Shown: piece by piece, positions 20,532 to 58,199 of the stretch
Position numbering within the stretch: the first letter of the stretch is position 1
Layout: every line of letters begins with the position of its first letter
IMG/VR virus record: IMGVR_UViG_3300034026_000014
Coordinates: 1 to 59,191 of that record
Reading direction: 5' to 3' (one strand)
Source of the DNA: a virus
Lineage: Duplodnaviria > Caudoviricetes
DNA: 59,191 nt
Notes under the pieces: generated by a model
Databases searched by the model: none
Seen by the model: only the letters and a program-made list of their open reading frames with translations
What the model was told of the DNA's origin: nothing
Made by a program: the position numbers and the translations under genes

Positions 20532-20534
20532 GCT

Positions 20535-40810: not shown

Positions 40811-41089
40811 ATGGGCAGAGTGGGCGAGAAGAACGTGGGCGCCAGCCATGGCGGCCAGCCCGGGCGGGACGGCGGGCAGGGCCAGGCGGCCGAGGTGAAG
40901 AAGGGTGTCCTCGACGGGGCGCAGCTCACCTCCGGCGCCAGGCTGCGGGTCGGCGGCGGCTTCAGAGGTTACTACCGCGACGCCCAGTTCGGCGACGACG
41001 GCGTGAGCGTGGGGGCGGTCTCGGCCGAGACCGAGGCGGCTCTGCGCTCGCAGTTCCCCAACGCAGAGATTGCGGCCGTCGAAGGCTAA
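40811..41089 (+). CDS. Small head-associated hypothetical protein
   Basis: RBS AGGAG; follows the capsid gene. Confidence 0.6.
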   Translation: MGRVGEKNVGASHGGQPGRDGGQGQAAEVKKGVLDGAQLTSGARLRVGGGFRGYYRDAQFGDDGVSVGAVSAETEAALRSQFPNAEIAAVEG

Positions 41090-41149
41090 GCCCGCCCCCG
41101 CGCGGGGGCGTCACCGTAGGACAAAACTTGCATTCACGAGGATTCGAGC

Positions 41150-41707
41150 ATGAAGCACAGATTGAGCCCGGCGGCGCCTTTGCTGGCCGCCGCCCTCTTC
41201 GTCATCACGGCGCTGAGCACGTTAACCGGCTTCGAGCCGCGCGCGGGCGCCCAGTCCGCCGGCGACCCGCAGCACGTCGTCGCGGTCGCCTCCGGGCCGA
41301 AGCTGCCCTCCAGCTGTAGCCCGACCTCGGGCAAGGTCTACTTCAACCTGACAGTCGCCGCCTCGGGGCGCGCCGTCGGCCTTTACCGCTGTAGCGCAAA
41401 GGACACCTGGACCGGCCCCGGCGTCTTCGCCAACGTCTACAAGGGAAGCGCCGCGCTCGATTTCGGGGCGACGGCCGCGGGCTCCTGCGACGCGCTGACC
41501 ATCACTGTCACCGGCGCCGCGTCGGGCGACGTAGTCTCCCTGGGCATCCCGGCGGCGCTCGCGGGGGCGGACTCCTACCAGGAATTCTGGGGCTATGTCT
41601 CCGCGAGCAACACCGTCACCGTCAAGCGCTGCAACCCGACGAACTCGACCACGGCACTCTCGAACCCGGCCGCCGCGACCGTGACGGCCGTCGCCACGCG
41701 CCCGTAA
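41150..41707 (+). CDS. Signal-peptide-bearing decoration-like protein
   Basis: Signal peptide to AGA-Q; LPSSCSP..G.VY...YRC...TWT module; ITVTGAASGDVV...YVSASNTVTV beta domain. Confidence 0.65.
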   Translation: MKHRLSPAAPLLAAALFVITALSTLTGFEPRAGAQSAGDPQHVVAVASGPKLPSSCSPTSGKVYFNLTVAASGRAVGLYRCSAKDTWTGPGVFANVYKGSAALDFGATAAGSCDALTITVTGAASGDVVSLGIPAALAGADSYQEFWGYVSASNTVTVKRCNPTNSTTALSNPAAATVTAVATRP

Positions 41708-41711
41708 CCGG

Positions 41712-42377
41712 ATGCCGCTCGAACTCGACAACATCCTCGGAGCGCTCTACCTGAGCCCGGAAGACTTCAGGAAGCGCGCGAGCGCCTTCGGCGCTCGCGT
41801 GGCCCTGCCCGAGGACGAGGACGAACTGAAGGCGCACCTGGCCGGCGCCTCGCGCGCCATCGACGCCTTCTGCGGCCGCCCCTTCTCCCCCGAGGCGGTC
41901 ACCGAGACACACCGCCTCGACGCCGAGACGCGCCGCGTCTCGGTGAACCGCCCGCCGGTGTTGGAACTGACGGGCTTCACGATCCTCTCGGGGCCAGACC
42001 GCTCCTTCGCGGTCGAGACCTCCCAGGTCTTTGTCAACCGACAGGAGAACTACCTGGAGGTGGTGAGTTGGGGCGCGCTCATCGGCCTGGCCGCCGGCGC
42101 CGGCTCGCTCGGCATCATCGAGCCGCAGGCCGAGGTCACCTACAAGAGCTACCAGGACGTGCCGCAGGCCGTGGCCGCCGCCTGCGGTTATGCCGCGGCG
42201 AAGTTCATGAACCAGGCTTACGCCAGCGGGCAGCTGCCCGACGGCATCCAGCGCGTGAGGCTGGGCAACAGTTTCGAGATCACGCGCGGCGCCGTCGGCT
42301 TCGGCGCGGGCGAGATCGAACTGCCGGCCATCGCCCAGTCACTGCTCGCGCAGTACAGGCGCATCGCCGTCGGATGA
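41712..42377 (+). CDS. Head-tail connector/adaptor
   Basis: ASRAIDAFCGR, VPQAV..AC, LLAQYRR pattern; position. Confidence 0.75.
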   Translation: MPLELDNILGALYLSPEDFRKRASAFGARVALPEDEDELKAHLAGASRAIDAFCGRPFSPEAVTETHRLDAETRRVSVNRPPVLELTGFTILSGPDRSFAVETSQVFVNRQENYLEVVSWGALIGLAAGAGSLGIIEPQAEVTYKSYQDVPQAVAAACGYAAAKFMNQAYASGQLPDGIQRVRLGNSFEITRGAVGFGAGEIELPAIAQSLLAQYRRIAVG

Positions 42378-42381
42378 AGTC

Positions 42382-42765
42382 ATGAGTACCTTGGGGGCGC
42401 TATTTACGGGGATGGCAAGGCTGGCGGGCGACCTCATCAACTCGATGCCGTTCCGCTGCTTCGTCGAGGAGAAGCAGCTCGTCTCGGACGGGCACGCCGG
42501 GAAGCAGGGCGAGTGGGCGGCGACGACTCAGGAGGCGCTTCCGTGCAACTACCTGCCAGAGTCGGGCTCGGCCCACGTCGAGGGCGACGTGCCGAAGTCG
42601 AAGACGGTTGTCACCGTCATCCTCAAGGCGGGGGCCGGGGTCACCGGCTCCATGCGCATCCGGCTGCTCGCGCACGCCGGCGAACCGGAAAGGCTGATCG
42701 AGGTCAAGAACGTCCTGCCCGCCGACGGGGTACTCGTCCAGGTCGTGGGACTGACGAACATCTGA
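42382..42765 (+). CDS. Head closure / head-tail joining protein
   Basis: SDGHAG...W beta-rich pattern; position. Confidence 0.65.
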   Translation: MSTLGALFTGMARLAGDLINSMPFRCFVEEKQLVSDGHAGKQGEWAATTQEALPCNYLPESGSAHVEGDVPKSKTVVTVILKAGAGVTGSMRIRLLAHAGEPERLIEVKNVLPADGVLVQVVGLTNI

Positions 42766-43166
42766 TGCCTTCAAAGCTAGTCAGTAACATCCCCGGGATC
42801 GTCGCGCGGATGCGCGCGGGCGCCGCGCGCGTGGCGCGCAAGTCGGCCTCGAACATCGCCGCCGACGTCAGGACCAGCATGGGTGGCCACAAGCACGGCC
42901 GGGAGTACACGCGGCGCGGGAAGAAACATCGGGCTTCCGCCCCGGGCGAAGCCCCCGCCATCGAGACGCCGGAGGGCGGGTACGCTCAGACGGTCCGCAC
43001 CGCGAAGGTGGACGAGTTGACGTTCGCGGCCGGGACGGACGACCCGCGCGGCCCCGCGCTGGAGCTGGGGGGCGGCCGCGTCGCGGCCCGCCCGCACTTC
43101 GGCCCCGCCTTCGAGCGGGAGGCCGAGAATTTCGGCGAAGGTTTGAAAGGGCTCTTTGAGGGGTGA
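42765..43166 (+). CDS. HK97 gp10-like neck/tail protein
   Basis: ASAPGEAPA, LELGG..VAARPHFGPAFE; TGATG coupling. Confidence 0.75.
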   Translation: MPSKLVSNIPGIVARMRAGAARVARKSASNIAADVRTSMGGHKHGREYTRRGKKHRASAPGEAPAIETPEGGYAQTVRTAKVDELTFAAGTDDPRGPALELGGGRVAARPHFGPAFEREAENFGEGLKGLFEG

Positions 43167-43597
43167 GCAACGTACGCGAGGCGCTGTGCAAGGCGATCCA
43201 GGGTGACACGGGCGTCGGCCGCGTCATGGAGCTGGCGAAGGACGTCTACCCGAAGTCCCCTCCGGAGGGCGTCAACGAGTATCCCTTCGTCGTCGTCGCC
43301 GCGCACCGCGCACCGCGCGGTGAATTCACCTTCGGCGGGCTCGACCACGAGGAGTCCATGTACCTGGTCAAGGCCGTGGACGAGAGCGACTCGCCGGCGC
43401 GCGCGGCCGAGTTGAAGAAACGCATCCGCGCGCTCCTCGACCCCGACGGCACCGGCGATGCCGAGCTGGAGGTCGAAGGTCACGGCACACTCTTCGTCTC
43501 GTGGGTGCAGGACGTCGAGTACGACGAGACGGCGGAGGGCGGCACCAAGTACCAGCACGAGGGTTGCATTTTCGAAATCTGGGTGGAGCCTAATTAA
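43163..43597 (+). CDS. Tail completion/terminator protein
   Basis: VYP..P....YPFVVV pattern; position. Confidence 0.7.
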   Translation: MSNVREALCKAIQGDTGVGRVMELAKDVYPKSPPEGVNEYPFVVVAAHRAPRGEFTFGGLDHEESMYLVKAVDESDSPARAAELKKRIRALLDPDGTGDAELEVEGHGTLFVSWVQDVEYDETAEGGTKYQHEGCIFEIWVEPN

Positions 43598-43599
43598 TC

Positions 43600-43788
43600 A
43601 TGGCGAGCCGAACAAACAAAACGAAAGAGCAGCAGCCGGCCGAGGTCTTCGTCGTGGTGAATCCCATCACGTTCGGCGACCCCGAGGTCCGGCACGAGGC
43701 GGGCGCGGAAGTGACGGACGTCCCTGCCGCGTCCGCCGTGTGGCTGCTGGAGCAGGGGCACATCAAGCGGAAGGGCGGTGAGCGGTAA
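43600..43788 (+). CDS. Small virion-module protein
   Basis: WLLEQGHI motif; position. Confidence 0.6.
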   Translation: MASRTNKTKEQQPAEVFVVVNPITFGDPEVRHEAGAEVTDVPAASAVWLLEQGHIKRKGGER

Positions 43789-44525
43789 TGGCCAAGCACG
43801 GGCGCCACGTCAGAATCTTCTTCGAACAGTTCCGCCTCTCCGCGCACATGCACTCGTTCTCGCTCACGCACGAGGCGCCGGCGGAGGAGTGCACGGTCTT
43901 CGAGTCGGTCACCAAACAGTTCACGCCCGACGCCGCCGGCGGCAACGCGAGCTGCGAGGGCTACTACCGCGGCACGGAGGAGGACGCCGACGCTTACCTC
44001 GGCGAGGCCCTCGGCTCCGACACGCAGGCGAACCTGATGATCGCGCCCGAAGGCTGGTCGGCCGTCGGCAAGCGCGTCTTCATGATGCTCTGCGACGTGA
44101 CGAAGAAGTCGGCGAAAACGATAGCGACCGCGCTGGTCTCCATCTCGGCCGACTTCCTCTCCTCGTCGGGCGTCAACACGGGCGTCATCCTGCACCCGCG
44201 CGAGGCAGAGGCGGCGACCGGGGCGGAAGGGACCTATCACGACCACGGCGCGGCCACGGCCAACGGCGCGGTGGCGCAGCTCCACGTCGAGGAGGCCAGC
44301 GAGGTCGGCGACGAGTCCCTGGTCTCCGTCGTGCAGCACTCGGCCGACCACGCGGTCTGGGTCGACCTCATCACCTTCGACGCGGCCTCCGCCCCGGGGA
44401 CGCAGCGCAAGAGCGTCGCGGGCGCGGTGAACCGCTACACGCGCGAGCGCCACGCGGTGGCAGGCTCCGCGCCGTCGTTCACGTACGCGGTCGGCTTCAG
44501 CCGGCTGAAGCCTTCACAGGTCTGA
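43788..44525 (+). CDS. Tail-tube-like protein with an extra C-terminal domain
   Basis: Starts MAKHGR and aligns by eye with 44590-45024. Confidence 0.6.
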   Translation: MAKHGRHVRIFFEQFRLSAHMHSFSLTHEAPAEECTVFESVTKQFTPDAAGGNASCEGYYRGTEEDADAYLGEALGSDTQANLMIAPEGWSAVGKRVFMMLCDVTKKSAKTIATALVSISADFLSSSGVNTGVILHPREAEAATGAEGTYHDHGAATANGAVAQLHVEEASEVGDESLVSVVQHSADHAVWVDLITFDAASAPGTQRKSVAGAVNRYTRERHAVAGSAPSFTYAVGFSRLKPSQV

Positions 44526-44589
44526 GGCGCCGCCCGCCGCTGCCGGCGGCGAGTTCTGCGGCTAGTTCAATTTAAGGAGTAGAGACGAC

Positions 44590-45024
44590 ATGGCGAAACA
44601 CGGCCGCAAGGCCCACATCGAGCTGGACAACCTGGCCGGCGTCCTGACCAACATCACGCGCAAGTCCACGTCCATCAACCTCGACCGCGACGTCGAGAGC
44701 GAAGAGACGACCGCCTTCGAGGCCACGAACAAGGAGTGGACGCTCGGCTTCAAGGACGCCAAGGCGACCCTCGAGGGCAACTCCGACGCCGCCATCGCGC
44801 AGCAGCTCAACGAAATCCTCGGCGAGACCGAGCCGACCGGCGGCGCCGCCGAGGAGGGCTTCGACATCGTGTGGGGCCCCGAGGGCAACGCCGCCGGCAA
44901 GCGCAAGTACTCGGGCAAGGTCTACGTGACCAAGTTCACCGAGAACGTCGGGGCCAAGAGCAGCAACAAGTTCACCGCCGAGGTGCAGTTCGTCTCCGAC
45001 CTCACGGTCGGCGTCTACGCCTAA
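44590..45024 (+). CDS. Major tail tube protein
   Basis: EETTAF...GFKD...GPEGN..G..KYSG siphovirus tube pattern; strong RBS. Confidence 0.8.
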   Translation: MAKHGRKAHIELDNLAGVLTNITRKSTSINLDRDVESEETTAFEATNKEWTLGFKDAKATLEGNSDAAIAQQLNEILGETEPTGGAAEEGFDIVWGPEGNAAGKRKYSGKVYVTKFTENVGAKSSNKFTAEVQFVSDLTVGVYA

Positions 45025-45144
45025 CGGGACCGTCGGCCGGCGGCCCCCTGTTAAAGGGCCGCCGGTCCCGGCGGGCGGGCGGCGCGGGGCGAAGTGCTCC
45101 GCGCCCGCGCCGCCCCTCATTTAAGTAAGCAGACAGGAGCACAC

Positions 45145-45528
45145 ATGCTGGACTTAGAGATCATCAAGGAGAAGCCGGAGGAGCTCACATTCGAGTTCGC
45201 CGGCGAGAAGGTGACGGGGACGTGTTACCCGTTCAAGGTGACCCCCACTTACCTGGCCGAGCTTCGTAAGTTGTCGGGCAGGGCCGCGCCGGCCGCGGAA
45301 CAGGCAGCCGAGGGCGAAGGTCAGCAGGCTGAGACGCCGGTCAAGAGCTCCGACGCTCAGATGATCCACGAGATCGTCGGCGGCTGGGACGTGGTCGCCG
45401 GTGGCAAGCCGTTCCCGCCGACGATCGGGAACCTGCTAGGTGCGCCCATCTCGTTCCTGGCGGCGACGGCGCTGGCCATCCTTGAACTGGTGGGAAAGCT
45501 CTCGACGACGAGCGAGTCGAAGAGTTAG
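45145..45528 (+). CDS. Tail assembly chaperone (gpG-like)
   Basis: Between tube and tape measure; ends shortly after the slippery site. Confidence 0.8.
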   Translation: MLDLEIIKEKPEELTFEFAGEKVTGTCYPFKVTPTYLAELRKLSGRAAPAAEQAAEGEGQQAETPVKSSDAQMIHEIVGGWDVVAGGKPFPPTIGNLLGAPISFLAATALAILELVGKLSTTSESKS

Positions 45529-45758
45529 CCATCTACCTGGCTACCTCGGGAGAAGAGGGGACTCTCCACCCCCTCTACCCGCTCGTCAGGGCCGCCAAGT
45601 ACTTCGGCGTCGGGCCCTGGGAGCTCTACGCGCAGGGCGACCACTGGATCAGCCTCGGCCTGGCCTTCGAGAAAGCGGACGCGCGCGCCGCCGAGATAGC
45701 CCGCGAAGAAGAGGAGGCGGGCAAAAAGAAGGACGAGGACGACGAGGACGACGAATGA
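45492..45758 (+). CDS. -1 frameshift extension (gpGT-like) from slippery G GGA AAG
   Basis: GGGAAAG at 45492-45498 is the lambda G-T heptamer; the -1 frame is open for 88 codons (…AAKYFGVGPWEL…). Confidence 0.8.
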   Translation, partial: GKALDDERVEELAIYLATSGEEGTLHPLYPLVRAAKYFGVGPWELYAQGDHWISLGLAFEKADARAAEIAREEEEAGKKKDEDDEDDE

Positions 45759-45823
45759 GTGAGACGCCGGAGGATGAAGGATGAGGCTTCACCCTCCGGC
45801 GTTCGGCCTTCCGGCCTGAATGT

Positions 45824-48800
45824 ATGGCGCTCGACCTGTTCAAGCTCTACGGCGAAGTGAGCATCACCGGCCTCGACTCGGCCGAGCGGGGACTCGTGCG
45901 CCTGGAGGGCAGGGCCAAGGGGACGGCCAAAGGCTTAGACCAGGCGGGCGGCTCCGCGCGCAGGCTGACGAAAGACCTCGCCGCCGCCGGGGCCCAAGGG
46001 TCCATCGTCGGCCGGGCGCTGGAAGACCGGCTGGGCGGCGTCGCCTCGCGCGTCCCGCTCATCGGTCAGCCGCTGGCAGAGGCGACGCGCGAGATGTTCA
46101 ACCTCGGCACGGCCTCCGAGAAACACCTGGGCGGCATCGTCAGGGACGCGGAGCGCGCGGCCCAGAAGCTCGCCCTCGCCCAGGCCCAGGCCGCCAAGGT
46201 CAGGGACACCCTCGCAACGCGCCGGTCTGATTTCGGGGAGAACCTGAAGATCAATTACGGGGGGAAGCTCGACCCCGACTTCCTCCTCCAGTTCAGGCAG
46301 GCCGAGGACGCCGCCCGCCGCCTCCAGCTGCTGACCGAGAAGGGCATTGACCCGTCCTTCATGACGAGGGTGGAGCGGTCGGCGTTCCAGTTCTCGAAGC
46401 TGGAGCGCGACGGCGTCAAGGCCGTCACCGCCGTCGAAGACAAAGTGGGTCAGGCGGCGACGGCCCTGGCCGGCTACGAGGCGGCGGCCGAAGGGGCGGC
46501 CGCCGGGACGGGCGCGCTGGCCGGCGCGAGCGCCGGCGTCGTGGTCGGCGTCGGGCTGGTGGCCGCCGCCGCCATCGCGTCCGGCGCGCTGGTCCTCAAG
46601 AGCGCCAAGGACTACAGCGATTACGCGGGCGCGATTAAAGACGTCGCCCAGGAGAGCGGTCTCGCCGCGCCGACGGTCTCCACCGTCGGCGCCTACGCGC
46701 GCCTCGCCGGCACCGAGGTCGGCCGGGCGGCCTCCGCCGTGGAGGTCTACTTCAAGAACATCTCCTCGGCGGCACACGGCAACCGGGAGATGTCGAAGAC
46801 TTTCGAGCGCTTCGGCATAGACGCGAAGAAGGCGCTCACTGACCCGGACCAGGCGGCGCGCGATCTGTTCGACCACCTGGCGAAAATCCGGAACCCGGCA
46901 GAGCGCCTCGAAGTCGCGTTCGGCCTCGCGGGTAAGAGCGGAAAGGTGCTCGCCAACATAGCCCAGGAGATGGGCGGGAGCTTCGCCGACGCCGAGCGCG
47001 CTGCGCACGAGTGGGGCGTCGTGCTCTCGGACGAGGACGTCGAGGCGGCCGACAAGTTCGGCGACGGCCTTGAGGTCCTGAAGATGAGGGCCGAGGGCGC
47101 CCTCTACCGCATCGGGAAAGTCGCCATCCCGGAGTTGCAGCACGACATCGAGAGCCTCTCGGCGACATTTATTTCGAACAGGGGTGTGGTCGAGGGGTGG
47201 GGCGTCGGGGTGGTGGACGTGATGCGCGGCGCCCGCCTGGCGGTCGAGTCGGACGTCGGCGCGATGATCGCCAAGGTCCTGTATTTCTCCAGCATCCTCG
47301 GACAACTCGGCCAGCTCAAGGCGGCGGCGCCAGAGTGGGCCTCCGAGGGGGGCATCGCCCTACTCAACCCCGCGTGGGCGCTCGCGCGCAACCTCGGGCG
47401 GGCCGGCGCAGCGGACCGCGCCCTCGATCAGGACTTGGCGAACGAGACCGCCCGCCTGCAATCAAAGAACTCCGGAGCGGTCGCGCCGCCGGCGGGCATC
47501 CCCCACGTCGGCGGCGGCGGGGGCGGCCGGAAAGGGGGCGGCGGCAAAAAGTCGAAAGACCTCACCTCCCTCTACGAGGCGCTGAGCGACGCCGAGGCGG
47601 GGCGCCTCATGGCGGGCCTCACGTCCGACGTGACGAAGCTCAAGGCCGGGCTCGACGCGCAGCAGTCGGTGCTGGACGCCGGCCTGCGCGCGCAAACCGT
47701 CAGCGTGCGCGACTACTGGGAGGAGCGCGAGCGCATCACCCTGGCCGGGCTCGACGCCGAGATCACCTTACTCCGCAGTCAGAAGCGCTCCGCGGCCGAA
47801 GGGTATCAAGAGAAGTTCGCGGCCATCGGCGCCGACAAGAAGCTCTCGGCCGAGGAGCGCACGCTGAAGCAGCAGCAGGAGTCGGCGCGCTGGGCGGAGA
47901 AGAACTACCAGCTCGAAGGGCAGATCGCCGAGGCGGTCGAGCGCCGCTCGGCGGCGATGAAGACCATCCCGCTCGAGGCGGCCGCGGCCGCGCGCGAACT
48001 CGAGAAGACGATGTCGGGCGTGCGGGCCGACTTCCTGGAGGCCGGCGGCGACACGGTCGGGGCCGCCTACGCGCGCATCGCCGACAAGTTCCGGGAGATG
48101 CACGAAGTGGCGCGCGCCAACGGCCAGCTCTTCCCCGACGCCGACAAGTGGGTCACGGCCCTGGAGCGCTCTGAGAAGCTGGCCGCCAACCTCGCCCGCC
48201 TGGGCGAGCGCGCCGACTTGGGGCGCGGCCACCTGAGCCTGGAGACCGCCCGCATCCAGGACAGGATTACCGACGGCGTCGTGAGCGAGCGCGAGGGGCG
48301 CCGGCAGATTTACGAGCTGGAGCTGAAGTACCGCGACTTGCTGCGCGGCGTTCTGGCCGAGTCCCTGGCGGTGGCGAAGGTCAAGGGGGACGAGAAGGCG
48401 ATCCTCTCCATCGAGGAGCAGATCCGTGAGACCGAACGCCTCGGGCACGTCATAGATTCCACCAAGGCGAAGGCCCGGGGCATCTTCGAGGGGGCCTTCT
48501 CACACGGACTGGATGAGTTAAAGGGCGGGCTCGGGCACGCCGCCGCGACATTCGGCATAGACCTCGTGGACGCCGTGAAGCGGGAGATGGACGCCCGGCT
48601 GACGAAGGTCATCAGCGAGGCGCTCTTCGGCAAGAACGATGAGTTCGGGTCGGATTCGGGGCTGATCGGGAAGGCGCTTGAAAAGATCGGGCTCGGCGGC
48701 ATCTTCGGCGGTAAGGGAAAAGGGAAGACCGAAGACCCGAGCGCGAAGGTCAGCGCGACGCTGGAGAAGACCGCGCAGGAGACGCAGGGCGCCTTCGAGC

Positions 48801-49453
48801 GCACGTCCGGCGACCAGATTTCAAACAGGGACTGGAACACCGACCGCATCCTCGACGCGCTGCGCCAGCTCGACGAGACGATGGAGAGCATGCGGCCGCA
48901 GCAGCAGGGCTTTTTGAGCGGGCTCGCCGGCGCCGCGCTGGGCGGCTTCGTCGGCAGCCTCGGCTCGGGACTGGCGTCGCGGGTCGGCGGCGGCCGCCGT
49001 GAGTCCACGCAGGGTTACGAGGTGGACGAGGACACGGGCACCTACACGCGCCCGCGGCGGGTGAATCCCCCCCCGGGCCACGCCCTGGGCGCGATGGTCT
49101 CGGCGACGGCCGGCGGCAAGCTGATCCGGGTCGCCGAGGGCGGCTACGACGAGCTGGTTTTGACCACGGACCCCCGCCACCGCGCGCGCAGCGAGGCGCT
49201 GCTGGCCTCCTACATGGCGAGGACGGGCATCATCCCGCACTTCGCCGCCGGCGGCTACGCCGGCGCCGGCGCGGGTTACGTCCCGCCTCCGGTACGCGTC
49301 GGTGACTCGCGCCGCCCGGGCGGCGGCGGGCGCGCCCCGGTCTACGTGGACGTCAGACTTAACCGCGACTCGCAGGGCCGAATAAGGTCGAAAGATCAAG
49401 TCCAGGTAGAGATATACCAGGGCTCGGCGGATAGCGCCCGGAGGAACGGGTAA
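45824..49453 (+). CDS. Tape measure protein
   Basis: 1209 aa, Ala/Gly-rich and helical; C-terminal RVAEGG.DELV and HFAAGG motifs. Confidence 0.9.
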   Translation: MALDLFKLYGEVSITGLDSAERGLVRLEGRAKGTAKGLDQAGGSARRLTKDLAAAGAQGSIVGRALEDRLGGVASRVPLIGQPLAEATREMFNLGTASEKHLGGIVRDAERAAQKLALAQAQAAKVRDTLATRRSDFGENLKINYGGKLDPDFLLQFRQAEDAARRLQLLTEKGIDPSFMTRVERSAFQFSKLERDGVKAVTAVEDKVGQAATALAGYEAAAEGAAAGTGALAGASAGVVVGVGLVAAAAIASGALVLKSAKDYSDYAGAIKDVAQESGLAAPTVSTVGAYARLAGTEVGRAASAVEVYFKNISSAAHGNREMSKTFERFGIDAKKALTDPDQAARDLFDHLAKIRNPAERLEVAFGLAGKSGKVLANIAQEMGGSFADAERAAHEWGVVLSDEDVEAADKFGDGLEVLKMRAEGALYRIGKVAIPELQHDIESLSATFISNRGVVEGWGVGVVDVMRGARLAVESDVGAMIAKVLYFSSILGQLGQLKAAAPEWASEGGIALLNPAWALARNLGRAGAADRALDQDLANETARLQSKNSGAVAPPAGIPHVGGGGGGRKGGGGKKSKDLTSLYEALSDAEAGRLMAGLTSDVTKLKAGLDAQQSVLDAGLRAQTVSVRDYWEERERITLAGLDAEITLLRSQKRSAAEGYQEKFAAIGADKKLSAEERTLKQQQESARWAEKNYQLEGQIAEAVERRSAAMKTIPLEAAAAARELEKTMSGVRADFLEAGGDTVGAAYARIADKFREMHEVARANGQLFPDADKWVTALERSEKLAANLARLGERADLGRGHLSLETARIQDRITDGVVSEREGRRQIYELELKYRDLLRGVLAESLAVAKVKGDEKAILSIEEQIRETERLGHVIDSTKAKARGIFEGAFSHGLDELKGGLGHAAATFGIDLVDAVKREMDARLTKVISEALFGKNDEFGSDSGLIGKALEKIGLGGIFGGKGKGKTEDPSAKVSATLEKTAQETQGAFERTSGDQISNRDWNTDRILDALRQLDETMESMRPQQQGFLSGLAGAALGGFVGSLGSGLASRVGGGRRESTQGYEVDEDTGTYTRPRRVNPPPGHALGAMVSATAGGKLIRVAEGGYDELVLTTDPRHRARSEALLASYMARTGIIPHFAAGGYAGAGAGYVPPPVRVGDSRRPGGGGRAPVYVDVRLNRDSQGRIRSKDQVQVEIYQGSADSARRNG

Positions 49454-50145: not shown

Positions 50146-50146
50146 G

Positions 50147-51046
50147 ATGCCGGTCACGAACCCCACCAGGTCGGTCAGCCCCGAGCTGCTCGCCGCACTC
50201 GCCGCCGAGTCGTCGACGCTGACGGCCTGCATCCTCATCGAGCCGGAGACGGCCGACGCCGTCGGCTTCACCGCGCACGACAAGGACGTCACCTTCGGGG
50301 GGCACACCTACCACACGGACCCGGGGCTCTCGGCGACCGAGCTGGCGGCCGCCATCGAGTACTCCGTCGATAACCTGGAGATCACCGGCGCCCTCAAGGA
50401 GGGCCTCGTGACCCGCGGGGACGTGGACGGCGGAGTCTTCGACGAGGCCCCGTACTCCATCATCGTCTTCGACTACGAGAGCCCGGGCTACGGCTCGATG
50501 ACGGTGCAGCGGGGGACTCTCGGCAACGTGGGGAGGGAAGACGAGCGGTTCACCTTCGAGCTGCGCTCTCAGTCGCAGAAGCTCCAGCAGACGCGCGGCG
50601 AGCTGACACAGCCACTCTGCCGCGCCGACATCTTCGACGGGAGGTGCACGCTCGACCCGGCCGACAACCACCCGACGCTCGGCATCCCGTACCGCTACGC
50701 GGACGTCGAGGTGACGGAGGTTCTCTCGCGCTTCGCGTTCAGGGCCGTCATCTCCGGCGTCCTCATCCCCGCCGGCTACTTCCGGGCCGGCCTGCTCGTC
50801 TGGGGCGCGGGCGCCAACGAGGCCCAGGCGTCGGAGGTGAAGACGCACACGGTCGCCGGAGACGTCCACACCATTACGCTCCAGGAGCCGGCTTACCGCG
50901 CCTTCGAGGAGGGCGACCTGTTCACCGTGCGCAAGGGCTGTCTGAAGACGATGGACGCGTGCGCGGACGTCGGGAACGCGGCCAACAAGAGGTCCGAGGA
51001 TTACCTGCCGGGATTGAACGAGATGATGAGGAGGGCGGGGCAGTAG
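50147..51046 (+). CDS. Baseplate hub (DUF2163/BR0599-like)
   Basis: GFTAHDKD, CRADIFDGRC, GCLKTMDAC Cys cluster. Confidence 0.85.
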   Translation: MPVTNPTRSVSPELLAALAAESSTLTACILIEPETADAVGFTAHDKDVTFGGHTYHTDPGLSATELAAAIEYSVDNLEITGALKEGLVTRGDVDGGVFDEAPYSIIVFDYESPGYGSMTVQRGTLGNVGREDERFTFELRSQSQKLQQTRGELTQPLCRADIFDGRCTLDPADNHPTLGIPYRYADVEVTEVLSRFAFRAVISGVLIPAGYFRAGLLVWGAGANEAQASEVKTHTVAGDVHTITLQEPAYRAFEEGDLFTVRKGCLKTMDACADVGNAANKRSEDYLPGLNEMMRRAGQ

Positions 51047-51093
51047 GGCGCCCGGCCGCGCGGCGGTCCGAACCAGAGTTCTTTTCTCTACCG

Positions 51094-51549
51094 ATGACCG
51101 AAGAGTTCACACCGAGGGAGATCACGGGCGCGGACGTCGTCGCGCAGGCGCTGCTGTGGCGCGGCGTGCCCTACAAGCAGGCCGGCGCGACGCGCGAGGG
51201 CGTCTGCTGCGCGGGGCTGCCGTTCGGCGTCGGCAAGGAGCTCGGGCAGATACCTCCCGGCGCCAGGCTCCCCGCCCACAACCCGCTCAGGCCCAACCCG
51301 CGCGTGCTCGTCGAGACCGTCCGCTCCTTCGGGGTAGAGGTCGCGCTCTCGGAGGCGCGCCCCGGCGACGTCGTCGTGCTCAGCTTCGAGGGGCGCAGGC
51401 TCCCGCGCCACCTCGCCATCCTGACGGACGCGGGGATGATTCAACTGTTCCCGGCCCAGTCCATCAGCCGCGTCTGCGAGCACGGCGTGGACGCGGCGTG
51501 GGCCGCCATGATGCTTACGGCCTACCGTTTCAAGGGGGTGAAAGACTGA
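51094..51549 (+). CDS. NlpC/P60 tail-tip protein
   Basis: W.GVPY..AG...GVCCAGL, PGDVV, RHLAI. Confidence 0.85.
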   Translation: MTEEFTPREITGADVVAQALLWRGVPYKQAGATREGVCCAGLPFGVGKELGQIPPGARLPAHNPLRPNPRVLVETVRSFGVEVALSEARPGDVVVLSFEGRRLPRHLAILTDAGMIQLFPAQSISRVCEHGVDAAWAAMMLTAYRFKGVKD

Positions 51550-53745
51550 ATGCCCCCGGCCATCCTCATCCCCGCAGCCATCAGCGCCGCCTTCTCGGCC
51601 GGCCAGTACGCCATCTCCTACGCGCTCGCCGGGTCGCAGAAGCAGCCGACGCAGGACAACGCGCGGACTGTAGACAACCGGGTGCAGGGGAGCCGCTACG
51701 GGCAGATGATCCAGCGGCTCTACGGGACGGTCGAGACGGCGGGAGTCGTCATCTGGGCGACGGACTTCCGCGACGACCCGACGCTTATCCGCGGCCAGCG
51801 CTCGAAGCGTGGCTCCACGCCCGACCAGCTCCACCACACCTACCGGCGCTCCTTCGGCATCCAGGTCTGCGCCGTGCCCGAGGGCGGCGCGGTCCTCGGA
51901 GTGCGCCGGATCAAGTTCGACGATAAGACCTTCGCCGACGCCGGCCCGGGGCTGCTCGCCACGTCCGGCGCCAATTACGAGATCAAGCTCGGCGCCGAGG
52001 ACCAACTCCCGAACACCTGGTACGAGGCCGACAAGGGCGTCGGGCGCGTCAGCGCCCACCGCGGCTACGTCACCCTCTGGTTCCACGACGTAGACCTCGA
52101 ACCCTTTGGCGACCGCATCCCCAACGTGCGCGCCGAGGTGGTGCAGGCCGTTGACCCTGCGCTCTCCGACGTCGTCGCGGCCGAGTGCCGGGTGGCGAAA
52201 CTCTCCGCCGCGGACATCGACGTTACCGAGTTGGCGGGGCTGGCCGTCTCGGGCTACTTCGTCAACACCCAGGGCCCGGTACGCGCCTCCCTCGAACAGC
52301 TCTCGTCTGCCTTCCTCTTCGACGGACCCGAGTACGACGGGAAGATTCACTTCCGCACGCGCCCGCGCGCGGCCGTCGCCACCGTCGCCTGGGACGAACT
52401 GGGCACGGCCGAGGGAGAGGAGTCGGCCGGCGGTGATGAGCCCGCGCCGCGGCTTTCGGTGAAGAGAATTCAGGGGGCGGAGATCGCCTCGGAAGTCTCC
52501 GTCTCTTACTTCGCGCGCTCGCGCGATTACGAGGAGGGCACGCAGACCTTCCGCCGCCAGAACCTCACCTCCGGCGCGCCCGTGACCGTCACCTACAACC
52601 TCGTCCTCGAAGACTCGGAGGCGCTGCGCCTGGCGAAGATTCGGGCCGTCGTGGGCTGGGCCGAGCGGCTGCCGGGGGAACTCGCCCTCCCGCCCGAGTT
52701 CTTCGCCTACGTCCCAGGCGACGTGCTGCGCGTGCCCCTGGACGAGTCCGGAGAGGAGTTCATCGACTTCCGCATCGAGAAGATGAACTTCTCCACGCCC
52801 GGCGTCGTCCGGGTCGCGGGGCGGCGACAGTTCCAGGAATCTTACGACCAGAACGGCGACGAGGCCGGGCCGGGCGAGGCGCCGCCGGAGCCCGACCCCG
52901 TCACGACCCCCTGCCCGACGCGCCTCTGGGTCAACGACCGGCCGCCCTTCAGGGCCGGCGAGATGGGCCGCCCCGGCCACTACGTCGCGGCCTCGCCCGA
53001 GGAGGGCTGCGACCCGACCGCCGGCGGCTCCTGGTCCGGCACGGGCGTCGTGCGCGACGTGGACGGCGCCGGCGACATGCGCCACCACGCTGTCATCACC
53101 GAGGCGGCGACGATGGGCTACGCGCTCACCGCGCTCGCCGGCGGCGCGGGCCTCGACACCACGCACCACGTGGACGTGCACCTGACCTCGGGCCAGGCCG
53201 CCTCGATCACGGACGACGCCTTCGAGGCCGACCGGACGTTGATGCTGTGGGCCATCGGCGGCGAGACCTGCCAGGTGCGCGACGTCGAGGACCTGGGCGG
53301 CGGCGACTACCGCCTCTCGCACATCCGGCGCGAGCTGTTCGACACGGACTCGGCCGGCCACGTCATAGGCGAGGACGTCGTGCTCTTAGACGCCAGGGTC
53401 GTCCGCGTCGAGCACAACCTGGAGGAGGTCGGCCAGAGCTTCGACCTCTACCCGGTCACCTTCGGCGACACGGTCGATAACACGACGCCGACGAACTTCA
53501 CCTACGGGGCGCGCGGCGTCGAGCCCGGCGGCGACGTGCCGGGCGAGGTGCAGAACGACGCGGTCGTCGCCTTGAACGGCACGAACGTCCTCCAGTGGGA
53601 GCCGCCGCTGGAGAACACGAACACGCTCTCGGGCTACCGCGTCACGGTCTTCTCCGACCCGGGGATGACGACGCCCGTGGCCGGCTTCGAGGACGTCCTG
53701 GTCTCAGGCAACCAGTGCCTGCTGCCCGGCGTGGAGGCCCTCTGA
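51550..53745 (+). CDS. Tail tip / central fibre protein (GTA-like host-specificity protein)
   Basis: YGQMIQRLYGT...VIWA, AHRG, FGDRIPN, RRELFDT; ends in a partial FN3 domain. Confidence 0.85.
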   Translation: MPPAILIPAAISAAFSAGQYAISYALAGSQKQPTQDNARTVDNRVQGSRYGQMIQRLYGTVETAGVVIWATDFRDDPTLIRGQRSKRGSTPDQLHHTYRRSFGIQVCAVPEGGAVLGVRRIKFDDKTFADAGPGLLATSGANYEIKLGAEDQLPNTWYEADKGVGRVSAHRGYVTLWFHDVDLEPFGDRIPNVRAEVVQAVDPALSDVVAAECRVAKLSAADIDVTELAGLAVSGYFVNTQGPVRASLEQLSSAFLFDGPEYDGKIHFRTRPRAAVATVAWDELGTAEGEESAGGDEPAPRLSVKRIQGAEIASEVSVSYFARSRDYEEGTQTFRRQNLTSGAPVTVTYNLVLEDSEALRLAKIRAVVGWAERLPGELALPPEFFAYVPGDVLRVPLDESGEEFIDFRIEKMNFSTPGVVRVAGRRQFQESYDQNGDEAGPGEAPPEPDPVTTPCPTRLWVNDRPPFRAGEMGRPGHYVAASPEEGCDPTAGGSWSGTGVVRDVDGAGDMRHHAVITEAATMGYALTALAGGAGLDTTHHVDVHLTSGQAASITDDAFEADRTLMLWAIGGETCQVRDVEDLGGGDYRLSHIRRELFDTDSAGHVIGEDVVLLDARVVRVEHNLEEVGQSFDLYPVTFGDTVDNTTPTNFTYGARGVEPGGDVPGEVQNDAVVALNGTNVLQWEPPLENTNTLSGYRVTVFSDPGMTTPVAGFEDVLVSGNQCLLPGVEAL

Positions 53746-53746
53746 A

Positions 53747-54226
53747 GTGCCGACGTTCTACTACAGGATCGTGGCGGTCAACGAGCTCGGCGAGTCGGTC
53801 GAGAGGACGGGGTCGTACGACCCCGAGGCCCCGACGAGCGGCAGCTTCACCGAGTCGGGCGGGGCGACGCTCACCTACGGCAGCATCCCGGACGGCTCCA
53901 CGCTCAGGCGCAGCGGCACGGCCGTCGTGGGCTACACGCCGGGCGCGGTCGCGCGCACGGTCACCCACGTCAGCGCCGGCGCGACGCTGCTCTCCTCGGC
54001 GCAGGTAGTCCTCGTGGACACGACGGCGGGGGACGTGACGCTGACGCTGCCCTCGGCGGCCTCCGCGGCCGAGATCACGGTCAAGAACTACGCGGGCGCG
54101 CACAAGGTCATCCTCGACGGCAACGGCGCGCAGACAGTAGACGGCTCCGCGACGGTCGAGCTGGCCGCCGGCGACAAGGCGACCTGCCTGGCCGACACGG
54201 TCAATTCCAACTGGCAGACGGTGTGA
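53747..54226 (+). CDS. Short tail fibre-like protein
   Basis: N-terminal [13 protein letters not shown] (FN3 end); [14 protein letters not shown]...QTVDG...W beta domain. Confidence 0.7.
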
Positions 54227-54228
54227 GC

Positions 54229-55545
54229 ATGAGAAGATTTTTACTTTTACCACTACTTTTACTTATGGCTTCGGCGCAGGCGGAGGCGCAGAACCCCTCC
54301 GCGGCTAAGCGCATCGCGTACAACACGACGCTGCCGGCGACCTGCGACCCGTCCACGGGTGACGTCTACATCAAGATCGGGGTTACGCCGACGGAGGAGT
54401 ACCTGTGCACGGCCACTAATACGTGGACGAAGCTCACGACGAAGACGGAGTTGGACGCGCACACCGGCAACACGTCGAACCCGCACTCGGTGACGAAGGC
54501 GCAGGTGGGCTTAGGCTCCGTCACGAACGACGCGCAGCTCAAGATCGCCTCGAACCTCTCCGACCTGAGCAGCGCGGCGACGGCGCGCAACAACCTCGGT
54601 TTGGGGACGGCGGCCGTGAAGAACGCTGCGGCCGCCGGCGTCGCCGGGGGCGTGCTCAATTCAGACGACCCGACGACGACGAACTCGCGCGCGCCGACCG
54701 CGCACGCCTCGACGCACGCCTCGGCCGGCTCCGACGCCGTCACGATCTCCGAGTCTCAGGTGACGAACCTGACGACGGACCTGGCCGGCAAGCAGCCGGT
54801 TGACCCGACGCTGACCGCGCTCGCCGCCCATAACGCGAACGGGCTACTGACGCAGACGGCCGCCGACACGTTCGCCGCGCGCAGCGTCGCCGCCGGCACC
54901 GGCATCAGTGTTGCGAACGGCGACGGCGTCGGCGGCAACCCGACGGTGACGAACACGGGCGTCACCTCGATCACGGGTACGGCCAACCAGGTCACCGCCT
55001 CGGCCTCGACCGGGGCGGTCACGCTCTCCCTCCCTCAGTCCATCGCCACCTCGAGCAGCCCCACGTTCGGCGGCCTCTCCGTCAGCGCCGCGACGCCCAC
55101 CTTCAACTTCATCACGACGGGCACCACGGGGCGGGGCCGGCTCTTCAGCGTCGCCGGCAACTGGTTCGGCATGTCGGCCAACGCGACGTTCAACGGCACG
55201 AACTGGGTCGCCGACGACGCCGCGGTCCCGAGCTGGGTCTTCAAGCTCGACGCGCGCAACAACACTGCCTTCGACCGCTTCGAGGTCGGCCGCATCGCCG
55301 CCGGCGGCACGCCCGCGGCGGGCTACACCTCCCACCTCGCCGTGACGGGCGCGGGCAGCGTCGTGCTGACGTCGGGCTCCGTCTCGACCGGGGCGACCGA
55401 CGGCTTCGTCTACATCCCCACCGTGCCGGGGCTGCCCACGGGGACGCCTACGAGTCAGACCGGGCGCGTGCCCCTCGTCTACGACACGACCAACTTAAAG
55501 CTGTGCATCTACGCGGGCGGCGGCTGGCGCTGCGTCGCGTTCTGA
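54229..55545 (+). CDS. Tail-fibre-like protein with a Sec signal peptide
   Basis: [21 protein letters not shown]; fibre motifs [18 protein letters not shown]...[13 protein letters not shown]. Confidence 0.75.
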
Positions 55546-55570
55546 ACTTCAGCCACGAGGATAAGAGACC

Positions 55571-58048
55571 ATGTGTAAATTAATCACCCGCCTCCTTTTG
55601 CTTCTGGTCCTGGCCGCCGCGGCCGCCCCCCGGGCCGCCGCGCAGGACACGCCCGGGACGGTCAAGTTCCCCCCGGCACTCGACACCGCGGACTCCCTCT
55701 TCCGCGCAGCCGACGGGGCCTCCTCGACCCTCTCCGCCCCCATCGGCAACTCCGACACCTCGATGACTCTAGCGAGCGGGGCCAAGTTCCCGACGTCCGG
55801 CGCCGTCGTCGTCGGCACGGAGATCATCTACTACACGGGCAAGTCCACGAACACGCTGACGGGGCTGCTGCGCGGGCGCGAGGGCACGGCCGCCGCCTCC
55901 CACCTCGCCGCCGCGGCGGTCAGGCTCCCCATCCTCTCGTCGCACCACAACACGGTCGTCCAGTCCGTGATCGCCACACAGGCGAAGCTCGGCTACGGGG
56001 CCTCGACGCCTTCCCTGGGGACGGTCCTGCGCGGTGTGGGCGCGGGCCAGAGCTTGTGGGGCACGCTCACGGCCTCAGAAATCCCTAACCTCGACGCGTC
56101 GAAGATCACGACCGGCGCGCTGGGGAGCGCGCAGATACCCTCGCTCGACGCCGCGAAGATCACGACCGGCACCTTCACCAACGCGCGCACGACCGCGACC
56201 ACGTCGGCCACGGCCGCCACCATCGTCGAGCGCGACTCCGGCGGCGCCGTCAACGCGACGGCCTTAAAGGTCAACGGCACGCAGGTCGTCGGCGCCCAGG
56301 GTTACAAGATTGCCGACCCGGAGGCGACGGTCGAGTCGAACACGGAGGCGATCAAGGAGCTGCTTACGCTCCTGCGGAACTGGGGCGCGGTTGGGACGCT
56401 CTCACGCTCGACGCTCAACGACTCCTTGATCTCCCTCTGGATGATGAACAACGTCAACGACTCGCACGGGTCGAATCATCTGACGAATAACGGCGCGGTC
56501 ACCTTCGACTCGGCCGGGGCCAACTTCAGCGGGTTGAATCACCTCTCCGTCGCGAACAACTCGACCCTCGATCCGACGACCTACCAGAGCTTCACCTACG
56601 CCGCGCGCTTCCGGCTCAACAGCAAGGCGACGACGCAGTCGATCCTGTCGAAGACCGACGGGGCGAGCGCCAACGAGTACGCGCTCAACTACGTCTCGGC
56701 CGCGGACGGGTTCGACAGGTTCAGGTGGAATGTCTATCCCGGAGGGAACACGCAGGTCGGCGTCACGGCCTCCTCGGCCGGCGCCCCCTCGGCCGGCGTG
56801 GACTACCTGGTCGTCGCTTGGTACGACGCTCAGACCGTGCAAGCCTGCATCCAGGTCAACGGCGGGACGGCGGACTGCACCTCCGTCGCACTCATTCCCC
56901 ACCCCTACACCTCGACGCTCGCCATCGGCGCCACCCTCGCGCCGGGGGCGGCCCTGCGCCTGAACGGCTCCGTCAGGTTCGTGGGCTTCTGGGGGAAGGC
57001 GCTCACCTCCGAGGAGCGGGCCGAGCTTTACGAGAATCAGGCGGTGCTCTCCTACCCCCTGAAGGACGAGACGACGGCCCGCCTGGAGCACGTCATCCAG
57101 CCCTACAGCCTTTTCGACTCTCGCGCGCCCGCGCACGCCAGCGCGCAGCCCGGCGGGTTCACCTACGCCCTGCCCTACAGCCGGGCGATCTTCACCACGG
57201 CGGCGACCTCGATGGACGTCCAGGTCTACACCTCCAACAACGAGGCGCTGGCGCGGGGGCGCTCGTTCAACGTCCGCGTCAACGGGGCGGACTACGCCCT
57301 GGTCGAAGCGCCGCAGAGCAGCAGCGCCGTCGCCACCCTCACGGTCGCGCTGCCCGCGGGTCAGAAGACGGTGGAGGTGTGGTCGGGGACTCAATTCCTG
57401 CAAGTGACCACGCTCGTCGGGACGTGGCTCCGCAAGGTGACCTTCAACGCCCCGGCGCAGATCAAGGCGGTGAGTAACAGGCAGCCGCATCTCGTCGCGT
57501 ACGGCGACTCGATCACGGTGGGCGACACGCGGGAGGGGTGGACGATGCTGCTGCGTGACGTCTACCCCGGCTCGGTGGCGCTGGAGGCATGGGGCGGGCG
57601 CTCGCTGGTGCAGGACGCGCCGAACGCGCCGGCCCGGGCCACGCTTGTCAACCAGATAGCGACGCAGAGCCCGGACGTGATCTGGCTCGGCATCGGGACG
57701 AATGACTACGGCGGCGTTGGTTTTGGGGAGCAAAGTGCGGCCAGCTTCGGCACGGCCTACGCCGCGCTCCTCGACGAGTTGCACGTCGCGCGCCCGACCG
57801 CCGCGATCTACGCGCAGTCGATGACGCCGCGGGCGAACGAGGCGGCGAACAACTACGGCAACACCCTGCCGCAGTATCGCTCACAGGTTCAAACGGCGTG
57901 CGCCGCCCGCCCGTGGTGTAATTTTGTGGATGGCACCGCGATACCAGGATGGAGCAACGCCACCGACCTCACGTTTGACGGGGTGCATCTGAGCACGGCC
58001 GGGAACCAGAAAGCCTTCAACTACTTCAGGACCTTCTTGGGGCTGTGA
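55571..58048 (+). CDS. Fibre/spike protein: signal peptide, fibre repeats, LamG-like domain, SGNH esterase
   Basis: Signal peptide to AAA-Q; RGREGT motif; IP.LDA.KITTG repeats; GDSIT, GTND and DGVH SGNH blocks. Confidence 0.8.
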   Translation: MCKLITRLLLLLVLAAAAAPRAAAQDTPGTVKFPPALDTADSLFRAADGASSTLSAPIGNSDTSMTLASGAKFPTSGAVVVGTEIIYYTGKSTNTLTGLLRGREGTAAASHLAAAAVRLPILSSHHNTVVQSVIATQAKLGYGASTPSLGTVLRGVGAGQSLWGTLTASEIPNLDASKITTGALGSAQIPSLDAAKITTGTFTNARTTATTSATAATIVERDSGGAVNATALKVNGTQVVGAQGYKIADPEATVESNTEAIKELLTLLRNWGAVGTLSRSTLNDSLISLWMMNNVNDSHGSNHLTNNGAVTFDSAGANFSGLNHLSVANNSTLDPTTYQSFTYAARFRLNSKATTQSILSKTDGASANEYALNYVSAADGFDRFRWNVYPGGNTQVGVTASSAGAPSAGVDYLVVAWYDAQTVQACIQVNGGTADCTSVALIPHPYTSTLAIGATLAPGAALRLNGSVRFVGFWGKALTSEERAELYENQAVLSYPLKDETTARLEHVIQPYSLFDSRAPAHASAQPGGFTYALPYSRAIFTTAATSMDVQVYTSNNEALARGRSFNVRVNGADYALVEAPQSSSAVATLTVALPAGQKTVEVWSGTQFLQVTTLVGTWLRKVTFNAPAQIKAVSNRQPHLVAYGDSITVGDTREGWTMLLRDVYPGSVALEAWGGRSLVQDAPNAPARATLVNQIATQSPDVIWLGIGTNDYGGVGFGEQSAASFGTAYAALLDELHVARPTAAIYAQSMTPRANEAANNYGNTLPQYRSQVQTACAARPWCNFVDGTAIPGWSNATDLTFDGVHLSTAGNQKAFNYFRTFLGL

Positions 58049-58079
58049 TGGGGGATTGACCTCACACATTGCTCAGGAT

Positions 58080-58119
58080 AGAGAGGGAGGGAGCCGCGGG
58101 GCTCCCTCCCTCTCTGTTT
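58080..58119 (+). terminator. Intrinsic terminator closing the late operon
   Basis: 16-bp stem AGAGAGGGAGGGAGCC/GGCTCCCTCCCTCTCT followed by GTTT. Confidence 0.7.
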
Positions 58120-58199
58120 AGCGGCTTTGAGTTTTGACTCTGTCAATATGAAATTCTGGCCGTTATCGTGAATCAAGCCTCGCGATTATCGTTTTTGCG

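Follow-up and report, generated by a model that had tools for sequence, protein, structure and literature searches.

In the textbook account, tailed-phage particles are assembled wholly in the cytoplasm. Phage proteins known to carry signal peptides include endolysins, spanins and the products of conversion genes. Lom and Bor of lambda, Llp of T5 and Cor are prophage-encoded proteins exported to the envelope; to our knowledge, they lack both fibre repeats and a particle-binding domain, nor do they have the build of appendages with a conserved N-terminus and a variable C-terminus. Searching the literature (few subscription journals, no supplements), we found no account of Sec leaders on tailed-phage fibres as a maturation route. 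Here, we analysed a 59-kb virus contig (IMG/VR record IMGVR_UViG_3300034026_000014; all 59,191 nucleotides are called the window below), which is a temperate siphovirus with an RcGTA-like tail tip. Three genes of its head/tail operon, starting at 41150, 54229 and 55571, encode leader-bearing proteins that we call SP1, SP2 and SP3 (Table 1). They resemble the Lom/Bor/Llp/Cor type in being phage genes with export signals, and some genes of that type lie beside tail-fibre genes. We judge it somewhat probable that SP1-SP3 are fibres and an SGNH-esterase spike, exported by Sec and disulfide-bonded, which become part of the particle at a late stage.

A cultured precedent comes from Cellulophaga phage phi18:3 (NC_021794.1). 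Its consecutive proteins gp085, gp086 and gp087 have Sec-type leaders ending before Gln; in its record, their annotations read virion structural protein, structural protein and tail protein, 'based on experimental MS/MS proteomics analysis' (MS/MS, tandem mass spectrometry). Translating nine other MS/MS-annotated proteins of this phage, we found all of them leaderless. By eye, gp085 also has a similar Gly/Tyr/Trp hairpin motif near the mature N-terminus. Unlike the window phage, phi18:3 is a cultured podovirus of a Bacteroidota host, and the likeness is one of leader build, not of compared protein sequences. Its record is silent on leaders, and unlike SP1-SP3, gp085-gp087 carry few Cys (0, 1 and 3, respectively).

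Outside phages, Bdellovibrio bacteriovorus makes MAT fibres with a signal peptide, a conserved N-domain of ~130 amino acids (aa), a trimeric fibre and swappable tips (PMC10769870). The leader-bearing fibres of the window share this build of leader, N-domain and tip, a likeness of architecture rather than of compared N-domain sequences. The MAT fibres differ in that they are cell-encoded, stand on the predator's surface and form no part of a virus particle (PMC10769870). Tailspikes with esterase activity are described for the Schitoviridae phages Moo19 and B2 (PMC11654681). They match SP3 in placing a receptor-modifying esterase on a tail appendage, the comparison covering the esterase alone. 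In P. gingivalis phages, genes of unknown function have Q-rule leaders, and the authors of that study read them as envelope modifiers (PMC10367356).

We called leaders by a strict home-made rule: a basic n-region, at least 10 uncharged residues and an 8-residue Kyte-Doolittle core of at least 2.6. Among the 23 open reading frames (ORFs) between 33080 and 58425, only 41150, 54229 and 55571 passed. A looser rule flagged 5/24, the extra two being the portal and the g15-like tip protein, both weakly. The leader of SP1 has a basic start, a ~24-residue hydrophobic run and AGA-Q at 34/35. That of SP2 opens with MRR, continues with a Leu-rich run and ends in AEA-Q at 20/21, and that of SP3 has K3 and R7, a Leu/Ala run and AAA-Q at 24/25. 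The initial annotation had proposed three operon genes with signal peptides ending AxA-Q, and a small residue, any residue, Ala and then Gln indeed close the leader in all three.

That annotation had also left room for true starts further downstream. The upstream starts are backed by a Shine-Dalgarno sequence, GAGGA, 8-9 nucleotides (nt) 5' of the ATG in 41150 and 55571; the ATG of 54229 sits 2 nt past the stop of the preceding ORF, and homologues speak for the same start. The database call of the 54229 gene (P0082, 426 aa) begins at an internal Met at 54265, 12 codons downstream, and thereby loses the leader. We rejected this start, as the internal Met is absent in homologues, which keep the leader. 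Such calls are an annotation trap: callers that choose downstream starts, as at 54229, would keep exported phage fibres from being noticed in protein databases. Leader-coding 5' ends are rich in AT: in 8 relatives drawn from loci L146, L148, L156 and L001, the guanine-cytosine content (GC) of the first 48 nt is 0.33-0.56 vs 0.58-0.71 in 15 leaderless structural genes. In the window, whose genome has ~70% GC, this value is 0.35 for SP2 and 0.52 for SP3, SP1 (0.69) being the exception.

Each mature chain has four Cys arranged as two close pairs, as had been claimed: Cys 56, 81, 113 and 161 in SP1, Cys 39, 60, 426 and 435 in SP2, and Cys 426, 436, 777 and 783 in SP3, which has an additional Cys 2 within its leader. 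The Cys counts of 15 other structural proteins are 0, 0, 0, 1, 1, 2, 2, 2, 2, 3, 5, 5, 6, 6 and 6. The module of the LPxxC type that 41150 and 54229 were said to have in common was recovered by BLASTP, which aligned residues 36-88 with 19-67 at 32% identity (E 5e-7, single comparison) with both Cys in register.

We then looked at database relatives. The proteins sharing the SP3 N-domain carry a leader in 13/14 cases, and the sole exception, P0228, starts Met-Ala-Val right at the domain. Sharers of the SP2 N-module have it in 8/9 records; the ninth is the mis-called start of 54229 itself. SP2-type and SP3-type leaders are unrelated in sequence and identical in build, with Gln at every junction. 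In the SP1 family (n = 79, query included), 68 members pass the strict rule. The 11 failures comprise five hydrophobic N-termini that resemble missed or mis-started leaders by eye, one with none and five plainly leaderless proteins. The close SP1 homologues P0004-P0009 retain the basic start, the hydrophobic run and an Ala-Gln-Ser cut-site motif. Conservation of the signal peptides in homologues, on which the earlier claim depended, is therefore found by our home-made rule in all three families: the kind of leader is kept while its sequence drifts.

To approach the SP3 anchor from a leader-blind side, we derived a profile from four sequences, taken from the window and three loci and restricted to the mature N-domain, and searched 1.84 billion cluster representatives with it. 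It matched 17165 representatives at E ≤0.001, 4162 at ≤1e-10 and 315 at ≤1e-30. Among the best 150 matches, 37 are giant multi-repeat proteins or hold the domain internally, and 113 have it as a single N-terminal stretch. These 113 divide into 79 with a leader, 32 starting M-x-x-PGT and 2 with a 10-residue hydrophobic stub, like the mis-called 54229. Gln stands immediately before the domain in 77/79 leader-bearing proteins, and the leaderless homologues begin exactly at the predicted cut of the leader-bearing ones, their domain running from residue 3-5.

In the leaderless fibres and spikes (32/113, and P0228), the same domain thus aligns from the first residues, heading long proteins whose C-termini vary. 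Their assembly presumably follows the textbook account, inside the cytoplasm. These proteins differ in the M-x-x-PGT start and in their cysteines, an even mature Cys count being found in 10/32 of them vs 55/79 leader-bearing members (Fisher p 0.0003). Performing FastTree analysis of 113 N-domains (112 matches and the window's own; one match carrying the domain internally was left out), we counted 13 changes of leader state vs 27.9 in shuffles (0/500 as low). Leader state is clustered on this tree, yet at least five switches fall on well-supported branches; therefore, homologous anchors switched leader state repeatedly. Judged on these comparisons, the leaders are real and selected. Separately, the core of the N-domain (profile positions ~26-94) occurs in tandem 12-31 times in giant proteins of 1900-7600 aa (P0271-P0288).

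SP3 matches five PHROGs (a virion structural protein, two baseplate wedge families, one tail fibre and one unknown) and two Pfam families, PF13472 (E 1.3e-14, 55.5 bits, cut-off 32.9) and PF00657 (E 6.6e-10, 39.9 bits, cut-off 23.6); NCBIfam gave a sub-threshold esterase match only. The catalytic blocks of SGNH/GDSL enzymes are GDS, GxND and DxxH, and they appear in SP3 as GDSIT, GTNDY and DGVHL. With these blocks in place, SP3 is so predicted to be a receptor-modifying spike. SP2 has generic fibre repeats and matches seven PHROGs, five of them tail, tail-fibre or tail-collar-fibre families and two of unknown function. The tail-fibre motifs reported earlier for 54229 and 55571 agree with these fibre and baseplate matches, to which 55571 adds the Pfam SGNH domain. 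Scanning viral contigs with SP2 gave 65 loci; among the 16 inspected, the leader-bearing form was present in L001 only and the other 15 were mid-fibre repeats alone.

The mature N-domain of SP3 was modelled by AlphaFold2 (AF2) with a predicted local distance difference test score (pLDDT) of 76. Its best Foldseek match was 8jov_1, from the portal-tail complex of phage GP4 (E 6.6e-5, TM-score 0.54 on target). Further matches were a JBD30 baseplate chain, 8rk3_b, with 31% identity across 74 columns, the AP22 gp54 tailspike (4y9v) and a K64-1 depolymerase; 9k4a and 4ru4 were also among the entries matched. As modelled, the SP3 N-domain folds like anchors within solved virions. A PDB sequence search with the domain found no match, and cultured phages of Pelagibacter, Shewanella and Synechococcus have structural proteins to which tblastn ties its residues 49-128.

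In the AF2 model of SP1, strands of the N-module lie at 64-66, 77-83 and 86-91, and the C-terminal beta-sandwich has a pLDDT of ~90. Weak Foldseek matches (all E >0.001) were to C-terminal parts of the tailspikes/depolymerases 6tku, 4ru5, 4ru4 and 9qrm, and a PDB sequence search with the SP1 family profile found no match. This beta-sandwich ends the proteins of 80 loci (L066-L145) in Bacteroidota, Acidobacteriota, Patescibacteria, Planctomycetota and others. The proteins reach ~3000 aa, and leaders are present in 46/61 loci with a complete 5' end. It also ends one N-domain relative, the long leader-bearing protein P0214. Pfam, NCBIfam and PDB sequence searches with it gave no match; it is a very widespread unnamed tip domain.

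The cysteines follow the leaders within the SP1 family. The C-terminal Cys pair, counted as at least 2 Cys among the final 95 residues, is present in each of the 68 members with a leader, and Cys is absent from this region in the 5 that are clearly leaderless. At the distant loci, at least 2 Cys are found in 14/46 leader-bearing proteins vs 2/15 others, and both of the latter resemble missed leaders or masked sequence.

The neighbourhood of these genes was compared in related phages. Three other phage records have sequence past the tip gene (L146/G001, L156 and L001/G002), and in 3/3 all the fibre-like genes there are leader-bearing. L146/G001 is the closest relative (tip protein 69% identical). 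L146 has, in order, the tip gene, the 159-aa protein, a leader-bearing fibre with the SP2 N-module and another C-terminus, a leader-bearing protein with the SP3 N-domain, and a third leader-bearing protein. The C-terminus of its SP3 homologue is different and unrelated behind the same N-domain. The SP1 homologue of G001 is syntenic, lying between the capsid-region genes and the adaptor gene. At 286 aa, it shares its leader and N-module with SP1 and ends in fibre repeats instead of the knob. L156, a prophage on a metagenome contig with a 48% identical tip protein, encodes a single 1112-aa leader-bearing protein with the same N-domain and a different C-terminus; by eye from the translations, bacterial-type (non-phage) genes come directly after it. 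In G002/L001, a complete, terminally repeated genome, the J-like gene is followed by genes for three leader-bearing proteins. Thus, a conserved N-terminus with an exchanged C-terminus holds for SP3, SP2 and SP1 among related phages. Gene position and transcription, this modularity, the fold of the N-domain and the phi18:3 precedent together make it probable that the three proteins are virion parts.

L146 encodes a homologue (70% identity) of the leaderless 159-aa protein that lies between the tip gene and SP2. In the window and in L146, the tip protein has its last domain split, as the tip ORF ends and the 159-aa ORF begins 1-2 nt on; the motif opening the 159-aa ORF is read through in one frame within the g15-like ORF of L156 (sites compared: window 53640-53820, L146 10080-10260, L156 8896-11400). 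Because L156 has the same domain inside its tip protein, the 159-aa protein is likely a tip-bound piece, and we infer that it is a candidate docking site. Strand complementation between the tip protein and the 159-aa chain is possible. A shared programmed frameshift from the tip gene into the 159-aa ORF is unlikely and was rejected, as the two ORFs are offset by +1 in the window and by +2 in L146.

Scanning 40000-59191 for the sigma-70 consensus, we found no promoter-like site (0.6 expected), and the scan showed no terminator-like sites between the fibre-like genes. The GC of the SP1, SP2 and SP3 genes is 0.68-0.71, like that of their neighbours. A moron or lysogenic-conversion cargo is not supported; the genes have no promoter or terminator of their own, their GC is that of the neighbours, and they show fibre and anchor homology.

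The Gln at the cut site raised the matter of the host. The paper on the Q-rule deals with Bacteroidetes and certain groups close to them, and its text does not mention Acidobacteria (PMC5837995). Since the closest relatives of SP1 and SP2 that bear an organism name come from Acidobacteria and Pyrinomonadaceae, we sampled 400 kb of two Pyrinomonadaceae genomes (L157-L176). A small residue followed by Gln was present in the c-region of 35/71 leader-like ORFs there vs 7/37 in 200 kb of E. coli K-12 (p 0.003); the remaining 36 Pyrinomonadaceae ORFs are mostly membrane proteins by eye. Exported proteins of these Acidobacteriota thus seem for the most part to begin with Gln. The leaders of SP1-SP3 look adapted to a Gln-exposing host, and the Bacteroidetes Q-rule may extend to Acidobacteriota, as judged by a crude rule on two genomes. 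The tip protein had no match at E ≤1e-5 in 5 acidobacterial genomes, and 2/401 matched it at E ≤1e-10, both distantly (27-33% identity).

The initial annotation had read the three proteins as exported and then either attached to the particle or secreted as free factors. Its first part is well supported by comparison, given the kind of leader, the Gln site, the leaderless homologues starting at the cut and the Cys pairs. Between its two outcomes, attachment is favoured and not settled, because an anchor-like N-domain is joined to swapped C-termini, its fold is like that of in-virion anchors, and a cultured phage has MS/MS-annotated leader-bearing proteins. Sec export, cleavage before Gln and oxidative folding are, on the sequence evidence, very probable. 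Given export, we consider it fairly probable that the mature proteins belong to the particle as appendages, docking once the compartments have mixed.

Starting from the leaders, the cut site, the Cys pattern and the anchor-plus-swapped-tip modularity seen in the comparison, we infer export itself, the disulfides, the pyroglutamate and the time and place of docking as follows. The three genes would encode appendages of a temperate siphovirus, namely a small knob protein, a fibre and a spike whose SGNH esterase would deacetylate sugars. In contrast to the remaining particle proteins, they would be synthesised as Sec preproteins and carried by the leader across the inner membrane. Signal peptidase I would cleave after small-x-Ala and expose Gln, which could become pyroglutamate where the host possesses a glutaminyl cyclase, and the paired cysteines would form disulfides in the periplasm. 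The new N-terminus would open the conserved anchor-type domain. Mature trimers would then dock on the tail tip, made of the g15-like protein and its 159-aa extension piece, only upon mixing of cytoplasm and periplasm, that is, after the holin opens the inner membrane or after lysis.

A different outcome of export, which we hold to be unlikely, is that the proteins never enter the particle. Their target would be the envelope of the infected cell or of the lysogen, the esterase deacetylating surface polysaccharide and the fibres binding receptors, and superinfection would be blocked or progeny kept from sticking to debris. The export signals and the active-looking (predicted) esterase fit such a role, and the phage possesses its own leaderless tip protein. 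Bacteria also export tailspike-like enzymes, for example Pantoea WceF (PMC7949094), and the Q-rule leader genes of P. gingivalis phages have been given this kind of reading (PMC10367356). However, a free enzyme has no evident need for an N-domain with an anchor-like fold and homology to leaderless virion proteins, and a conserved N-terminus with swapped C-termini is the pattern of docked appendages. The genes also lie in the late operon with no promoter-like site, and the leader-bearing proteins of phi18:3 were annotated from virion MS/MS.

Considerably less probable is that SP1-SP3 are cell-surface fibres of the Bdellovibrio MAT kind, a prophage cargo that alters adhesion of the lysogen, with the N-domain binding a cell-surface element and the tip varying. 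The architecture is the same, and the SP1 C-terminal domain ends many large leader-bearing bacterial proteins, with leaders at the 46/61 loci mentioned above. Against this, 3/3 other phage records retain the place right behind the tail-tip gene, the head region of G001 has a syntenic SP1-like gene, the N-domain matches chains within virions, and the GC equals that of neighbouring genes.

Least probable of all, and in our view only a slight chance, is that the hydrophobic N-terminus does not serve export, being a membrane tether or a hydrophobic plug in cytoplasmic assembly or the product of wrongly placed starts; the database call of 54229 (P0082, 12 codons downstream) and the atypical c-region of SP1 speak for it, but the internal Met of 54229 is not retained in homologues that retain the leader, the small-x-small-Gln junction is kept in 77/79, leaderless homologues begin at that junction, cysteine pairs track leaders, and Shine-Dalgarno sites precede the upstream starts of 41150 and 55571.

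Several points weigh against late-docking, exported appendages. The leader calls come from a home-made rule, and the c-region of SP1 contains Glu and Arg, which is atypical of leaders. Foldseek with the SP1 model returned nothing at E ≤0.001. At the distant genome loci with the SP1 C-terminal domain, 32/46 leader-bearing proteins have no Cys pair, and the link between Cys and leader is therefore clade-bound. Virion MS/MS, as used for phi18:3, can pick up co-purifying proteins. The phage also has a leaderless central tip protein, and infection without side appendages is possible; because this tip protein may suffice, SP1-SP3 need not be virion parts. Finally, PHROG and other family scans recognised no lysis genes among the window proteins, and for this reason the mixing step is not assignable to a holin type.

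The remaining features of the window are given in Table 1. The g15-like tip protein matches PF13550 (E 3.2e-24), PF23666 (E 3.5e-12) and PHROG 4271 (E 1.6e-95). The head-region genes at 37752-39188 and 39241-40698, which precede SP1, gave no match in Pfam, PHROG and NCBIfam searches, and a PDB sequence search with the 485-aa head-region protein gave none either; calling 41150 'next to capsid gene' is therefore positional only. The C-terminus of the portal is a 2H-phosphoesterase/2'-5' RNA ligase-like domain (PF13563, residues 548-636, E 7e-11; PHROG 755). This fusion is unusual and might act on cyclic or 2'-5' nucleotides. The adjacent genes 43788-44525 and 44590-45024 both match major-tail-protein PHROGs and both begin with MAKHGR; a duplicated tail tube protein, or one made in two forms, is possible. 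GC is ~0.68 in the phage part vs 0.62-0.65 in the flanks, and a low-GC island (0.50-0.58) at 12000-22000 inside the prophage is probably a defence island.

Table 1. Positions of the leader-bearing genes, their parts and other features in the window
Feature	Coordinates	Strand	Remarks
SP1, 185-aa leader-bearing small fibre/knob protein	41150..41707	+	between unassigned head-region genes and head-tail adaptor gene
SP1 leader, residues 1-34	41150..41251	+	predicted cut AGA-Q
SP1 N-module, Cys-bridged hairpin	41297..41416	+	Cys 56 and 81, bridge predicted; common to 54229
SP1 C-terminal beta-sandwich	41432..41704	+	Cys 113 and 161; widespread fibre-tip type domain
SP2, 438-aa leader-bearing tail fibre	54229..55545	+	
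SP2 leader, residues 1-20	54229..54288	+	predicted cut AEA-Q
SP2 N-module	54289..54432	+	Cys 39 and 60
SP3, 825-aa leader-bearing spike	55571..58048	+	N-terminal anchor-type domain, C-terminal SGNH esterase (predicted)
SP3 leader, residues 1-24	55571..55642	+	predicted cut AAA-Q
SP3 mature N-domain, residues 25-165	55643..56065	+	particle-binding type (by fold)
SP3 SGNH/GDSL hydrolase domain	57491..58024	+	Cys 777 and 783 inside
159-aa leaderless protein	53747..54226	+	first ~25 residues continue the last domain of the tip protein
Leaderless tail-tip protein, RcGTA g15-like (Phage-tail_3 and Rcc01698_C)	51550..53745	+	Pfam PF13550, PF23666
Integrase	9847-11127		
CI-like repressor gene			in the window
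GmrSD-type restriction enzyme	14284-15873		PF03235 E 1e-31; low-GC island
Large DNA methylase	18177-20531		low-GC island
MerR-type regulator			low-GC island
Large terminase	33080-34783		
Portal fused to 2H-phosphoesterase domain	35049-37076		
Head-tail adaptor	41712-42377		
Major tail proteins			before the tape measure
Tape measure	45824-49453		
DUF2460 tail-tip gene	49453-50145		
phiJL001 gp84-like hub	50147-51046		

Beyond this phage, we put forward tentatively, at somewhat short of an even chance, a general and so far undescribed assembly route. In Gln-exposing hosts (Bacteroidota and, apparently, Acidobacteriota), host-recognition gear would be exported by Sec, cut by signal peptidase, capped by pyroglutamate and disulfide-bonded in the periplasm, and snapped onto fibre-less cytoplasmic particles only in the brief interval between holin opening and outer-membrane rupture. 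Gains or losses of the leader would number at least five on a single anchor domain with thousands of members. If periplasmic maturation of this kind applies to the fibres and spikes of many phages, a large group from soil and water, the particles of these phages would be non-infectious until lysis starts. The stability of the fibres, through disulfides and a capped N-terminus, would be supplied by envelope enzymes of the host, and host range would be tied to the host's Sec, Dsb and cyclase machinery. The receptor-binding proteins of such phages would then need periplasmic expression for folding in the laboratory.

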